This document shows, piece by piece, positions 6,068 through 57,122 of a stretch of DNA of 57,122 bases; position 1 is the first letter of the stretch, and each line of letters opens with the position of its first letter. Source of the stretch: Candidatus Woesearchaeota archaeon (GTDB lineage: Archaea > Nanobdellota > Nanobdellia > SCGC-AAA011-G17 > JAFCDX01); contig JAFCDX010000005.1 in the NCBI GenBank assembly GCA_017609465.1, forward strand, positions 1 through 57,122, written 5' to 3'. The notes beneath the pieces are model-generated. The model ran no database searches. It was given only the letters and a program-made list of their open reading frames with translations, and was not told the origin of the DNA. The translations under genes were made by a program, and so were the position numbers.

Positions 6068-6108
6068 ATATTAAAAATATATTTAGAAGTTTATAAAATT
6101 ATTGTGAG

Positions 6109-6200
6109 AGTGGTAGGTGGGATTTGAACCCACGATCTCAAGCTTTCTGCTTATGAGAAGCCACAGGCTTGCGTGATAACCAGGCTTCACTACTACCACC
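6109..6200 (-). tRNA. tRNA-His (GUG) with a 16-nt anticodon-loop intron and an encoded G-1
   Basis: Minus strand reads G-1, GTGGTAG, TA, GTGA-AGCCTGGTTA-TCAC, G, CAAGC, CTGTGG[CTTCTCATAAGCAGAA]A, GCTTG, AGATC, GTGGG-TTCAAAT-CCCAC, CTACCAC, T. No CCA is encoded. Confidence 0.85.
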
Positions 6201-20585: not shown

Positions 20586-21130
20586 ATTCTGTGTAAAAAC
20601 TCCACAATCCATATAAACAAGATAATGTCCCACTTATTGAATATTTATAGCTATTTTTCAAAATCTCTTACTTTTCTCAACTGAAAATTTAGCCATTACA
20701 GATGTTCTAAAGCCATTTTTTGCTTTTCGTGTCCCACTTACGTACATTCGGAACTACTTTTAATCAGTAGATCGGCAAGTAACATAATATTAAAATTAGA
20801 TTTATTATAAAAATAAGAAAACGTACATAGGGATTGTAAAATAGAGTCTTTTAGTAACTGCATGCTAAATACCTCGTTGCCTTGGTACGTACACACCAGT
20901 TCTATCAAACCTGTCTTTTGCAGGGGACTCAAGTGTCTCTTTTCGAGGTATCCTTCGAGCTTAGATGCTTTCAGCTCTTATGATTTGAAGCGTAGCTGCT
21001 CTGCCTACCTTGTCAGATAACAGATACACCAGTGGCTTCGAGCCATCGTTCCTCTCGTACTAAATGGTCCTTCCTCTCAGACACTCACACCTCCACCAGA
21101 TATTGAACAAACTGTTTCACAACGTTCTGA

Positions 21131-21784
21131 CTCTGGGAACAGGAGAGACTCACAGATTCAAAGAATCAAGTCTCCTCTGCTTTTCTGGATGAATAAAACC
21201 AATTTTCTTTTTGAATATGATTAAAGAATTTCTCTCACGAATTGTTAGTCTGTATTGGTCTTTTGATTCTGTAAAATTTAGCCCACATTTAATTCCTAAA
21301 TCTTCAAGGAAATTTTTTAAATTAATAACTAAATTATTACTCTTTGACCAAAATATTATTTGAGGATATTTTTTGTTATTTTTGGTGTCAAATGAAATTG
21401 AACCATCTCTTGAAAATAAACCTTTAATAAAATCCAATTTTTCATTGAATTTAATATTTGGAAGATCTATAGTTTCTGATTTCTTACCTCTTGGAATACA
21501 ATATATGTTTTTTAATTTGTTTTTTAGTTTCTTATTATAGATATATAAGACATATCTATTTTTTTCAAATCCACTTTTTGATTTCCATATCTTTGTTTTG
21601 TATTTTTTTGACATTATTGAAACTTTTTCAAGGAAATCCTTGTTGGATGTTATGAAACGTATTCCATGGTAATCTTTGTCGAGATGTCCATCACTTGCTA
21701 TTAATCCTGCAAATAATGCTAAATCTGTTTTATTCATCTTAGCAGAGAAGCCTTTCTTTTTAGTAAATCTTGCTCTCAAGTTCT
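21131..21784 (-). mobile_element. 23S rRNA intron carrying a homing endonuclease gene
   Basis: Removing 21131..21784 restores the conserved exon junction 'GAGCTGGGT|TCAGAACGTTGTGAAACAGTT'. The boundary can slide by a few nt. Confidence 0.8.
21150..21779 (-). CDS. LAGLIDADG homing endonuclease (double-motif)
   Basis: 209 aa with motifs '[14 protein letters not shown]' and '[12 protein letters not shown]'. It fills almost the whole intron. Confidence 0.9.
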
Positions 21785-23276
21785 ACCCAGCTCACGAGCC
21801 GTTTTGATGGGTGAACACCCCCACCCTTGGCTGCTTCTGCACAGCCAGGATACGGCGAGCCGACATCGTCGTAGCAAACCGCGCCGTCGATTTGAGCTCT
21901 TAGGCGCGACAACTCAGTTATCCCCGGAGTAGCTTTTCTGTCATCCCTAGCCCCCACCAATGAGGACATAGGGGTTCGCTAAACCCATGTTTCCATCCTG
22001 CATTCCTTATTGTTCGAAATACAGTCAGGCCAGCTTATGCTTTTGCACTCTACTCAGGATCTTTAGTACCTATAGGATTTTTCGTTAACATTTTCCTAAA
22101 AGGTTATTCTAAACCTGATGAGCTGACCTTTGGGCCCTGCTGATACCGTTTCAGCAGGGTGCCGCCCCAGCCAAACTGTCTACCTACTGATGTTCCCTCT
22201 TTCGAAGGTTAGCGATGCCGATTTTAAAGGGTGGTATCTCACTATTGTCTACACTCAAACTAGCGCCTGAGTTTTAACAACTCCCACCTATACTGCACAT
22301 CAAAACCAACACCACAACAATAGACTACAGTAAAGCTTCACGGGGTCTTTACTTCCCGCTGGAGGTCTCTGGCCTTTGCACCAGAATAGTGTGTTCAGGG
22401 GCTTCAAGCTAGGGACAGTAGGGATCTCGTTACGCCATTCATGCAAGTCGTCATTAAAACGACAAGGTATTACGCTACCTTAAGAGAATTACAGTTATTC
22501 CCGCCGTTTACCAGTCTTTACTTCCCTTGAATAGGAGATTCAGATACTGGCACTGGGCAGACTTCATCTCCTGTACAAACCTTTTCAGGCTAGCAGGAAA
22601 CTACGTTTTTGTTAAACAGTCGGACCCCTCTTGTTACTGAGCCCTAAATTCGCCCGAAGACAAATTTAGGGATCCTTTATCCCAAAGTTACAGGACTAAT
22701 TTGCCGAATTCCCTTAGCTCGATTAAACCCTCACACCTGAGGCTTCTCACCTAGGGTACCTGTGCTGGTTCTGGGTATGATCATTCAAGATTCATATTGT
22801 TTCCTTTTTCACGGGCTCATGGCATCAGCAAAACTACCTAAAAGATAGCTCATCTCAAATTTAATCAAGTTCTCATCATTACAATACTCCCTTGATTTAT
22901 TTTGATTAATATATCAGACAAGATATAATTGCCTAGCCTTAAGCGTCAGAAAACAATCTTTCGTTGCCGATTGTACTTGAATGGTAAAGGAATTTTAACC
23001 TTTTTCCCTTTCTCATCTTCCTATTTACGGAATAGATTAGGATCAACTTACTCTCAGCTGATTTGCATTGCTGAGAAACCCTTACCCTTTCGGTGTCAAA
23101 GATTCTAACTTTGTTCAGCTCTTACTACCACCAGGATTCTCATTTCTACCAGGTCCATATCTTTTTACAAAAATATTTCTTCCCCGATAGAACGCCTGCC
23201 TACCATTTCTTTAGAAATCTATGGTATCGGTAATCAACTTAGCCCCGTCCATTTTCAGGGCATACAATCTTGACAG

Positions 23277-23319
<43 letters not shown>

Positions 23320-24498
23320 TACCTCCCTGCTGTCTGTGAATGTACACACCTTTCACCCGTTAACACTTAGTTGATATTTTGGGACCTTAACCATAGGCTT
23401 GGGTTGTTCCCCTCTTGGGACACGAGCTTACCCCATGCCCCCGTTTCCTGAAATCTACGATGTTCAAGATTTTTGAGTTGGACAAAAAGCCGAGGGATTT
23501 CTCCCCCTAAACTTTAAATCCGTAGCTTTACACCTTAAACTATCTCATTCAAGACTGGACTACGGCCCATTTCGGCAGGAACCAGCTATCACCGGTCTCG
23601 ATTGGCATTTCACCCCTAAACCAAGATCAGAAGAACGCTTGCTCACAGAACCTCTTCAGGCCTCCATCTCCTTTTACAGAGATTTCACCTTGCCCTGGCT
23701 TAGTTCGACCGGTTTCGGGTCGTATCCAAATGACTTAAAGCATTTTCATACTTTTCCCCTCGTGAACTGCGGGATTTCGCTTTCGCTTTGATTTCTCTTT
23801 GTAAAGATTAATCTTGCCACTTAGATACACTCCCTGGTCCGTTATTCGAAACGTACGATGCAATTCCTAAAAACAGCATCATACTATGACCGTTAGGTTT
23901 CAGGCTCTTTTAACTCCCTGTTACGGGTTCTTTTCAACGTTCCATCACTGTACTATGCGCTATCGGACTTGAAATAATATTTAGAGTTAGAAGTTGATGT
24001 CTCCCATATTCTGACTTAATATCCAATAAGCCATACTCTAGATACCTCTACTCCTCTTAAATTTTTCTTACGGGACTATCACCCTCTTTGGTGCTTCTTT
24101 CCAGAAAACTTCAGATGGTTTAAGTAAGGATAAAAAGAGGTCTAAAACACCACATCTCCTATTCATTTCTGAAAGGATTCAGTTTGCCCTGTTCCGCTTT
24201 TTCTCGCTGATATTAACGGAATCTCATTGATTTCTTTTCCTGCAGGTACTAAGACGCTTCAATTCCCTGCGTGAGTCTTCCTTACGGAATTCAAAAGACT
24301 GAGGTCAGATTCAGGAATACTCGGTTCTAAGGCTGCTTGCACCTCGCCGAGTCTTATCGCAGCTTGCCACGCCCTTCATCACATTTCAAGCCAAGTCTTC
24401 CACCTAACGGCTTAAGAGCTTTACAATCCCTATGCACGATTAATATAAATATTAATCCTTGGACTTAAACTTTTGTTATAAATCCGCATTTAAAAAAA

Positions 24499-24598
24499 TG
24501 GACCTGTCGGGAAATTCACATTTCTTATTCTAAAAAATGTTTTGAACCCGAGACCCCCGCCTTGCAAGGGCGATGCTCTTCCGCTGAGCTACAGGCCC
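24499..24598 (-). tRNA. tRNA-Ala (UGC) in the 16S-23S spacer, with a ~28-nt intron in the T-loop
   Basis: GGGCCTG TA GCTC-AGCGGAA-GAGC A TCGCC-CTTGCAA-GGCGG GGGTC TCGGG TTCAAA[ACATTTTTTAGAATAAGAAATGTGAATT]T CCCGA CAGGTCC A. G3:U70 is present. The intron (about 24513-24540) contains the ACATTT/AAATGT helix. Confidence 0.8.
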
Positions 24599-25097
24599 AT
24601 TATAAGTATGGACATTTAAGCTTTGTGAGTTTAAAAAAAAGGAGGTGATCCATCCGCAGGTTCCCCTACGGGTACCTTGTGACGACTTAGCCCTCCTTGC
24701 TGAACCTAAATTCGTTTTAATCCGAAGATTAAACCTCATTCAGACCCTACTCGGATGGCTTGACGGGCGGTGTGTGCAAGGCTCAGGGACGTATTCACCG
24801 GACACTGATGATATCCGATTACTACGAATTCCATTGTCATGAGGATGAGTTGCAATCCTCAATCTAGACTAAGATAGGGTTTTGAGGATTAGCTTCCCTT
24901 TTCAGGGTTGCGACCCATTGTCCCTACCATTGTTGCGCGCGTGTAGCCCAGGAGATTCGGGGCATACTGACCTAACGTTGCCCACACCTTCCTCCTGCTT
25001 TCACAGGCAGTCCCATATATTGTGCTCATTCCTCAAAAGAGATGTTAGCAAATATAGGTATGGGTCTTGCTCGTTGCCAGACTTAACTGGACACCTT

Positions 25098-54860: not shown

Positions 54861-55256
54861 CTATTGATGTTTCTCACTTAATTCTTTTTTTAATATATTA
54901 TATAATTCTCCATTAATTGTCATATTAATATTGCCTTTATTGATATATCCGGTTGCACCTGCTTTTATAGCGCTTTTTTCTATCTTGTCATAAGAGACAA
55001 TGTAAATTGGGATTTCTTTATATTTTTTAATTGCCCTAACTCTTCTTACAGCTTCAATACCATTTGTATATCCCATAACCTCATCAGTAAATATAATATC
55101 ATAATTATTTTTTATTTTTTTGGATAAATCAGATCCGTCAAAACCTTCATCTATATCCGCTTTTAAATCTAACATTTTCAAATTCCATTTTATATGTCTT
55201 TCAAGAAATTTTAAGTAATTTATATCATCATCCACAATTAATATTTTCTTTTTCAT
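54861..55256 (-). CDS. stand-alone response-regulator receiver (CheY-like) protein
   Basis: 'KILIVDDD', 'DIIFTDEVMGYTNG', 'PIYIVS' and 'GATGYINKG'. Its start overlaps the thermosome stop by 4 nt. Confidence 0.85.
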   Translation of the reverse strand: MKKKILIVDDDINYLKFLERHIKWNLKMLDLKADIDEGFDGSDLSKKIKNNYDIIFTDEVMGYTNGIEAVRRVRAIKKYKEIPIYIVSYDKIEKSAIKAGATGYINKGNINMTINGELYNILKKELSEKHQ

Positions 55257-56872
55257 TGGTAAGGCATTCCACCCTGTGGCATTTGTTGCTGCTGGTCTTC
55301 TTTCCCTGAAGCTATTATGTCATCAATTCTTAATATCATGTTTGCAACTTCAACTGCAGATTGTATTGCCTGTAGTTTTATTTTTAAAGGTTCTATTATT
55401 CCTAATCTCCATGAGTCAGATATTTTTCCAGTAAATACATCAACTCCAGCCCATTTCTTTCCTTCATCATGCTTTGATTTCAATGACGTTAATATATCTA
55501 TTGGATCAAGGCCTGAATTTTCTGCAAGTGTTCTTGGTATTATCTCCATTGATTCTGCAAAAGCAGTAACTGCCAATTGCTCTCTTCCAGAAAGTTTTTC
55601 AGAATATTTTCTCAAATTTCTTGCAATCTCTATCTCTGTTGCCCCTGCACCACCTACAACTCTTTCATTTTTTAATGCACTTATTATGTCACCAAGAGAA
55701 TCTTTTATTGATCTTTCAACTTCGTCAACAACATGCTGCGTACCTCCATGAATCAAAAATGTTACAGCTTTTGGGTCTTTGCAGTTTCTTACATAAGTCA
55801 TCTCTTCATCACCAACTTTCAATTCTTCAACAACACCTGCATACCCCAAGTCACCTTTACTTATATCTTTTAAATTAGAGATTATTTTTCCTTTTGTTGC
55901 TCTTGACAATTTTTCCATGTCAGAAGCTTTTATTCTTCTCACTGCATAAATATTATTTTTTGACAAATAATGTTGTGCCATATCGTCAATGCCTTTTTGA
56001 CAAAATACAACATTTGCTCCTGTTTGAGCTATTTTATCAACCATGTCTTTTATTATTTGCTCTTCCTTGTCAATAAATGATTGTAATTGTTCAGGATCTG
56101 TTATTGATAATTTTGAATCTATTTCAGTTGATTTTATTTCAAGTGCAGAATCTAATAGTAATATTTTTGCATTTTTAATTTTATTGGGCATTCCGTAATG
56201 AACTTTTTCCTTATCTATAATAATGCCTTCTATTAATTCAGAGTTTTCTATTGAATCTCCCACTTTCTTTTCTATTTTCACGTTTTCTATGTCTATGTTT
56301 TTATGATTGTCAGTAATTCTTCTTATTGCTTTTACACACAAACTTGCTAATTTTTCCTTGTAAGCTTCTGCTTCTCTCCCATTCATTGCTGTCATTGCTA
56401 TTTTTTTTAGAATTTCATCATCTTCAACCTTTAATTTCTCGGACATGTTGTTAAGGACTTTTTGTGCTATCTCTCCAGCAATTCTGTATCCTTTAATTAT
56501 GACTGTTGGATGTATGTCTTTGTCTATTAAGTTTTCAGCACTTTTTAACAATTCTCCTGATAATACCACTGCTGTTGTAGTTCCGTCACCAACTTCTTTT
56601 TCCTGTGTTTTTGCAACTTCAACAAGCATTTTTGCTGTAGGATGTTCTATTTGCATTTCATCAAGAATTGTAACTCCATCATTTGTTATTATTATATCTC
56701 CCATAGAATCAACAAGCATCTTGTCCATTCCTTTCGGTCCTAAAGTAGTTCTAACTGTCTCAGAAAGGGCTTTTGCTGCTGCTATATTATTTCTATGCGC
56801 TTCTCTTCCTTTTGTTCTTATAGCGCTTTCAGGTAGAACATATATTGGTTGATTTTGGTTTTGGTCCGCCAT
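55253..56872 (-). CDS. ths: thermosome subunit (group II chaperonin)
   Basis: '[12 protein letters not shown]', 'ITNDGVTIL', '[11 protein letters not shown]' and '[10 protein letters not shown]'. Confidence 0.97.
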
Positions 56873-56976
56873 TTTTCTCATTTATAAGTAAAAAATATAT
56901 TAAGAAGTAATATATAAATTTTGCGTTGGATGTTATCAAAACCTTTTTAAATAGACCATTTCTAATTTAACTATAT

Positions 56977-57122
56977 AGCGGGATAGAACAGCTAGGAGAT
57001 CTTTGGGATGGTCTTATTATCCTATAGGACCTAAATGTTCGCCGAAATAATATCACAAAGATTTTATTGCGAAAGGCCCATAACTGTTGTGGGGAACCCG
57101 GAGGTCGGTGGTTCAAATCCAC
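56977..57122 (+). tRNA. initiator-type tRNA-Met (CAU), 3' end cut by the window, apparently with three introns
   Basis: AGCGGGA TA GAAC AGCTAGGAGA [37 nt] GTTC G CCG [30 nt] GG CCCATA [13 nt] A CCCGG AGGTC GGTGG TTCAAAT CCAC... It has A1, a perfect D-stem only after removal of 57000-57036, and three G:C pairs closing the anticodon stem. Confidence 0.55.

Follow-up and report, generated by a model that had tools for sequence, protein, structure and literature searches.

Does the end of this DNA encode an initiator tRNA-Met interrupted by three introns, and is such a gene likely to work? The window, by which we mean the whole stretch of 57,122 nt analysed, is one entire contig (C33 in the assembly numbering, not to be confused with nucleotide C33 below), and the candidate gene at 56977-57122 runs to its last base. 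The assembly comprises 36 contigs, 0.80 Mb, with 30% GC, and is 89% complete. Because the Rfam matches within the window include archaeal 16S and 23S rRNA, RNase P RNA and SRP RNA, the host is archaeal; it is a DPANN archaeon of the Woese-/Pacearchaeota type (GTDB Nanoarchaeota) with a small genome. The locus is very probably a functional initiator tRNA-Met gene with three introns and a BRE/TATA promoter, processed by EndA and RtcB, whose end has been lost to a contig break.

A naive bulge-helix-bulge (BHB) scan with G-U pairs allowed returned ~35 candidates in 160 nt, many of them weak and false. Since the BHB motif alone is not diagnostic in DNA of 30% GC, the intron boundaries were anchored on orthologues. 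When positions 56960-57122 were searched by BLAST against 60 relatives, the outer exon blocks proved 90-100% identical in many of them. These blocks lie just 16 nt apart in G059, G033 and G009, which are intronless genes, and are separated by inserts in others; 57095-57122 is identical (100%) to the corresponding stretch of the intronless genes of G025, G035 and G059. The intronless G059 gene (75 nt) was aligned with the window gene and with the genes of 20 relatives by a dynamic programme in which long insertions were free and BHB motifs were not considered. As a result, three insertions of 37, 30 and 13 nt were returned in the window gene, the exon bases of which agree with G059 at 62 of 66 positions, with G003 likewise at 62 of 66 and with G041 (sole intron in the T-arm) at 64 of 66. 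Cuts were placed by the BHB rule, under which exon bases p-5 to p-2 pair with intron bases n-5 to n-2 and 3-nt bulges are cut after the second base. The resulting features are as follows.

56940-56957, plus strand: promoter-like BRE/TATA element, T/A-rich core at 56944-56953, centre ~28 nt 5' of tRNA position 1
56977-56998, plus strand: exon 1, positions 1-20a (acceptor 5' strand, D-stem 5' strand, most of the D-loop), from the spliced alignment to G059 and BLAST
56999-57035, plus strand: intron 1, 37 nt, at 20a/21; strict hBHBh' motif, TAGG (56993-56996) with CCTA (57030-57033), bulges AG/A and AA/U (slash marks the cut), outer helix 3 bp, inner helix 4 bp
57036-57044, plus strand: exon 2, positions 21-29 (D-stem 3' strand, G26, anticodon stem nucleotides 1-3), from the spliced alignment
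57045-57074, plus strand: intron 2, 30 nt, at 29/30; strict hBHBh' motif, TCGC (57039-57042) with GCGA (57069-57072), bulges CG/A and AA/G, outer helix 2 bp, inner helix 5 bp
57075-57082, plus strand: exon 3, positions 30-37 with C33 and anticodon CAU, from sequence and the spliced alignment
57083-57095, plus strand: intron 3, 13 nt, at 37/38 (the canonical site); relaxed hBH motif with a small loop, CCCA (positions 32-35) with TGGG, bulges UA/A and GA/A, outer helix 2 bp, inner helix 1 bp
57096-57122, plus strand: exon 4, truncated, positions 38-64 (anticodon stem 3' strand, variable loop, T-stem 5' strand, T-loop, four of the five T-stem 3' nucleotides)

At each of the three introns the central helix is complete, with 4 of 4 pairs, and the bulges are 3 nt long. 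Flanking helices of at least 2 bp, as in the strict form, are found at introns 1 and 2, and at intron 3 h is 2 bp and h' is 1 bp. Across the 21 initiator genes of the window genome (G000) and the 20 relatives, a perfect 4-bp central helix with 3-nt bulges was found in 24 of 28 introns. Applied to these genes, the cut rule is validated by its products, which match intronless orthologues in mature sequence. Compensatory changes are seen in G019, where the intron 1 site pairs CAGG with CCTG (TAGG/CCTA in the window) and the intron 3 site combines U33 with CTCA/TGAG (C33 with CCCA/TGGG in the window), the latter compensated at position 33. The original prediction, that the DNA folds as a tRNA only after three segments are removed, thus finds agreement in both the motif-free alignment and the BHB geometry. 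Its boundaries for introns 2 (57045-57074) and 3 (57083-57095) were exact, but intron 1 had been set one base too far right, at 57000-57036. This placement was rejected because it gives A21 where intronless relatives all have U21, and the bulge rule leads to 56999-57035, with which the D-loop ends in GGAGU as in the relatives instead of GGAGA. In addition, TTCGC...GCGAA, previously taken for an intron-internal hairpin, is an exon-intron pairing that forms a central BHB helix. At intron 3, a flanking A leaves placements from 36/37 to 38/39 equivalent in the alignment. An intron within intron 1 (candidates 57016-57033 and 57010-57026) was rejected, since loss of the former candidate would remove CCTA, one side of the outer motif, and neither has a counterpart among the orthologues.

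In-silico splicing restores the D stem and the anticodon arm (CCGGG / CCCAUAA / CCCGG) with the anticodon CAU and the pairs G29-C41, G30-C40 and G31-C39; the T-stem 5' strand and the T-loop are intact. The initiator hallmarks claimed for the locus, A1 and three G:C pairs at the base of the anticodon stem, are thus borne out in the spliced sequence. The partner of A1 at position 72 lies beyond the contig end, and A1-U72 and A73 occur in 20 of 20 orthologues. ARAGORN called tRNA-Met(CAT) for all 20 relatives after in-silico splicing and called the spliced window product tRNA-Met only when the nine bases of G059 were added hypothetically. The unspliced gene was called neither by ARAGORN, with or without intron mode, nor by Rfam cmscan at E up to 10. 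A gene with three insertions that is cut short at its 3' side is expected to escape such programs, whose silence is therefore no evidence against it. The second CAU tRNA of the genome (C26:117913-118031, with a 42-nt intron) is of the elongator type, as indicated by its G1-C72 pair, and no other initiator-type gene was found in a search across the assembly (89% complete). An A-rich/TTTAAA motif stands at an equal upstream distance in orthologues (G007, G002, G025, G035, G056, L022, L026 and L031), and the BRE/TATA element presumably acts as the promoter of the gene.

The retained part corresponds to the 5' 66 nt of the mature tRNA, up to position 64. The gene looks incomplete because the contig ends there, so that ~9 bases are absent: C65, the acceptor 3' strand, which should be complementary to AGCGGGA, and A73. 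The tail of the window showed no overlap with other contigs of the assembly, and the expected TCCCGCT strand was not found within 80 nt of any contig end, an absence that is no proof in an incomplete assembly. The listing of public runs gave no RNA run with the organism; the best DNA run, a hydrothermal-vent metagenome that may be the source sample, contains 100%-identical 151-nt pieces over 56700-56850 and 56882-57032 only, leaving the last 90 nt uncovered; the depth of the organism in it is only ~2x. A 26-nt stretch spanning intron 3 and exon 4, searched as an exact pattern, was not found in metagenome contigs.

Could the gene be truly broken at this point, either as a split or permuted tRNA or by a mobile element or rearrangement between the T-arm and the 3' end? 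The contig ends within the T-arm, which is a classic region for integration, many contigs of the assembly end in shared repeats, and free-standing LAGLIDADG genes adjoin the orthologous initiator gene in G005 and G019. Split and permuted initiator tRNAs also exist: that of Nanoarchaeum equitans is reportedly split. That of Thermofilum pendens is permuted, with its termini in the T arm (PMC4090602). As proposed for the window gene, the pieces of these tRNAs are joined at BHB motifs by EndA; they are, however, trans-spliced or permuted, whereas the gene here is collinear in one transcript unit and contiguous in relatives. A true break is very unlikely, as 20 of 20 relatives' genes, including those of three genera of the same family, run without interruption through A73, the expected TCCCGCT is missing from all contig ends of the assembly, a 3' piece of nine bases would be shorter than any precedent for a split fragment, and the ~2x metagenome depth alone explains contig breaks.

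It is extremely unlikely that the locus is a decaying pseudogene or relic, with the working initiator in the unassembled 11% of the genome. The incomplete assembly and the failure of standard tRNA finders raise this question, but no exon base departs from the cloverleaf or from the consensus of the orthologues, the three BHB helices are perfect and the promoter motif is conserved. Moreover, homologous introns 1 and 2 are kept in another genus (G003) with structure-preserving changes, and small genomes of this kind normally have one initiator gene, as most relatives do. Chance resemblance, that is, AT-rich intergenic DNA with tRNA-like pieces, might be suspected from the silence of Rfam and ARAGORN at the locus and from the noise of loose BHB scans. 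It is effectively refuted: initiator genes of many relatives match the 22-nt and 28-nt exon blocks at 90-100% identity, and excision of the introns leaves the blocks in the proper order and at the proper distance. A 4-bp central helix with an outer helix of at least 2 bp arose in 5%, 0.2% and 3% of trials when introns 1, 2 and 3 were shuffled and in 0.5% of random placements in the window, giving a joint shuffle probability of ~3e-6 for the three motifs. For the reading as a functional three-intron gene, the sequence, the exon orthology, the polymorphism of intron positions, the BHB geometry, the compensatory changes and the EndA and RtcB genes are directly observed.

Orthologues of the same family and order, with near-identical exons, have introns present or absent at precisely these positions. 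A 15-nt intron occupies the 20a/21 site in G003 and G019, and the 29/30 intron is homologous in G003 (83% identity across the region) and G002, with introns at this site in seven more Woese-/Pacearchaeota MAGs. The 13-nt 37/38 intron of the window type is also found in G005 and G007. Two other genera of the same family carry more introns: the G003 gene (L003:1456-1620) has four, at 15/16, 20a/21, 29/30 and 43/44, and the G002 gene (L019:1415-1645, minus strand) has five, at 15/16, 29/30, 37/38, 44/45 and 59/60. A perfect 4-bp central helix is present in seven of these nine introns, and both genes, which are also on L029 and L030, are called tRNA-Met by ARAGORN after in-silico splicing. The series of 0, 1, 3, 4 and 5 introns in near-identical exons gives a clear natural record of how introns are gained and lost, and supports the rule that an intron is kept only at a site able to form a BHB motif. 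An archaeal initiator gene with a 29/30 intron was also seen in the L028:1611-1648 region, on a MAG titled 'Patescibacteria group bacterium'; this contig or bin is probably mislabelled or contaminated.

The claim that the initiator carries C33 holds, both in the DNA of the window gene, where no boundary shift removes it, and family-wide. C33 is present in every family member examined (G002, G003, G004, G005 and G007), in the intronless gene of G059 and in the G041 gene with its sole T-arm intron, so that orthologues lacking an anticodon-arm intron have it too. Among 240 genomes of the order, the uninterrupted C33 arm GGGCCCATAACCC was found in 15 and the U33 arm GGGCTCATAACCC in 79, with reversed-pattern controls giving 0 and 1, respectively. 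To judge from these genes, C33 is a recurrent lineage state and not peculiar to the window gene. Eukaryotic initiator tRNAs have a T-loop form that differs from the archaeal UUCAAAU. Initiator tRNAs of multicellular eukaryotes have C33, while the bacterial and unicellular-eukaryote initiators compared with them have U33 (PMC8887486); in the literature found, C33 initiators are those of multicellular eukaryotes only. The tRNA described here resembles them in having C33 in the initiator only and a CCCAUAA loop above three G-C pairs, but it is archaeal, polymorphic for C33 and U33 within the order, and has the T-loop UUCAAAU. An archaeal C33 initiator would therefore be a small, real addition to the known C33 cases. 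It may also bear on the formation of t6A37, which C33 blocks for the bacterial and yeast enzymes (PMC8887486). As to the genes concerned, Kae1/TsaD is clearly present in the genome (C30:5387-6163), and Sua5/YrdC has a sub-threshold match only (18.8 bits, C25:39248-39430 of G000, inside a 581-aa frame).

The splicing machinery is encoded in the genome by an EndA gene (C26:121327-121908 of G000; L032:1474-2058, minus strand; 194 aa, PF02778 and PF01974) and a single RtcB gene (8.6e-171). The alignment of EndA with the homotetrameric enzyme of M. jannaschii (PDB 1a79, 3.7e-35) is full-length and has one gap, of one residue. Residues aligned to the Tyr/His/Lys triad of the M. jannaschii enzyme are conserved, the six extra residues seen before the catalytic His in the N. 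equitans alpha subunit are absent, and the N-terminal tail is Lys-rich. By this comparison, EndA is a plain alpha4-type enzyme with a Lys-rich N-terminal tail. A tblastn search of the genome found no EndA paralogue. The heterotetrameric EndA that had been suggested as a check was thus not found, the genome having a single alpha4-type gene with no insert relative to M. jannaschii EndA and none of those tied to broad specificity in published work. In DPANN archaea, tRNA disruption has been linked to alpha4 EndAs with an L3 insert, and inserted loops have been tied to cleavage of relaxed motifs (PMC5829648). No L2- or L3-type insert was seen in the window genome's EndA, which, with the relaxed motif of intron 3, counts against the three-intron reading. 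Introns 1 and 2, with strict motifs, should be acceptable to any archaeal EndA. The insert-free alpha4 EndA would also have to cut the relaxed 13-nt intron and the non-canonical sites; the same enzyme coexists with many non-canonical and multiple tRNA introns in the genome.

RNAfold predictions, in which the helix probabilities reach 0.95-0.99, bear on the order in which the introns could be removed. With 56977-57122 unconstrained, the central helices of introns 2 and 3 form with a probability of >0.95 (intron 3 >0.94 across runs). With the acceptor 5' strand and the variable/T region kept free for their tRNA partners, the intron 1 and intron 3 helices are predicted to form (at least 0.95, with intron 1 at 0.97 or higher), while the intron 2 helix falls to 0.02 and rises to 0.6-0.8 once intron 1 is excised in silico. 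The intron 2 motif needs T24-C27, bases taken up by the D-stem and the intron 1 outer helix, with which it shares G22-C25, and would be favoured only after removal of intron 1. A point against the reading is that introns 1 and 2 have mutually exclusive BHB motifs, so that processing would need refolding; the modelling suggests that intron 1 is excised before intron 2. In the proposed pathway, the promoter ~28 nt upstream would drive transcription of the precursor, in which each intron and its flanking exon bases may fold into a BHB motif. The unspliced precursor would fold the motifs of introns 1 and 3, and the intron 2 motif would follow once intron 1 has been excised. The single alpha4-type EndA would cut after the second base of every 3-nt bulge and RtcB would join the exons, producing a mature tRNA predicted to have A1, three G-C pairs at the anticodon stem base and C33. 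Transcription, actual splicing, the splicing order and the missing 3' end are what we infer for this gene. If so, the sole detectable initiator tRNA of a minimal-genome archaeon depends wholly on three predicted splicing events. The gene was overlooked by automatic annotation, and such genomes therefore appear to lack an initiator tRNA that is present.

The three-intron initiator gene adds to an already known class of multi-intron tRNA genes, and the class itself is not new. In the Thermoproteales, three introns per tRNA gene is the published maximum (PMC4033280). Like the gene here, those of Pyrobaculum, Thermofilum and Caldivirga (Sugahara et al. 2007/2008, reviewed in PMC4033280 and PMC4090602) have up to three BHB introns each, often at non-canonical positions (D arm, anticodon stem), missed by standard finders and removed, as predicted here too, by EndA and a ligase. 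The Thermoproteales, however, belong to TACK and have a heterotetrameric (alpha-beta)2 EndA with a Crenarchaea-specific loop, whereas the present gene lies in a 0.8-Mb DPANN genome with an alpha4-type EndA. Related cases are the disrupted tRNA genes of DPANN archaea (ARMAN with an epsilon2 EndA, PMC3239211; a survey with Pace-/Woesearchaeota, PMC5829648), which share the superphylum and have non-canonical and multiple introns. In that survey, incomplete tRNA sets pointed to undetected disrupted genes (PMC5829648). The published disruption is tied to EndAs with an L2 or L3 insert, in contrast to the EndA here, which has no insert relative to M. jannaschii. The window gene and its orthologue series were not found described in the DPANN disrupted-tRNA literature, as far as it was searchable. 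In Asgard archaea, up to five introns occur in one tRNA gene (2026 preprint), with an average of ~2.2 intervening sequences per gene, D-arm introns missed by tRNAscan-SE, BHB sites and repeated gains. These belong to another superphylum; the window gene has three introns and its same-family orthologues four and five.

Taken jointly, these features allow a wider and more doubtful proposal: that the family has fixed a C33 initiator with three to five introns, removed in a fixed order (intron 1 ahead of intron 2) by a minimal alpha4 EndA that has none of the loops considered essential for non-canonical or relaxed substrates. We consider this possible, though rather unlikely. If it were true, neither broad EndA specificity nor hierarchical tRNA splicing would require the known structural inserts in order to arise, and C33 in initiators would have had an independent origin in archaea.

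Introns are not confined to the initiator gene. The count of six introns in five tRNA genes of the window given in the original prediction stands (His 1, Ala 1, Ser 1, Gly 0, iMet 3), and non-canonical or multiple introns are also present in other tRNA genes of the genome. Two of the window genes are as follows.

6108-6199, minus strand: tRNA-His(GUG), 16-nt intron placed by the BHB rule (CTGT/GCAG), encoded G-1 opposite U73
24500-24600, minus strand: tRNA-Ala(UGC), in the 16S-23S spacer, G3-U70, T-loop interrupted by ~27 nt, 56 nt only aligned by Rfam

ARAGORN miscalls 6108-6199 (minus strand) as Thr or Tyr. In the surroundings of the initiator gene, the upstream neighbour in the window is a thermosome gene (55253-56881, minus strand). 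In G005 and G019, a free-standing LAGLIDADG_3 ORF of ~190 aa lies directly 5' of the gene (L013:902-1471 and L007:849-1436, respectively), and G003 has a 180-aa ORF in its place. The downstream neighbours vary between relatives. At the other end of the contig, nt 1-113 (to 144) are repeated at the ends of C14, C26 and C32 (99% identity) and C31 (94%), and a second end sequence is common to contigs C5, C12, C18, C23 and C24; the assembly seems to be fragmented by an unassembled multi-copy element. Finally, the 23S rRNA match of the window is split into 20932-21085 and 21710-24427 (minus strand) with ~620 nt between them, and an intron in the LSU rRNA gene would be consistent with this two-piece match at 20932-24427.
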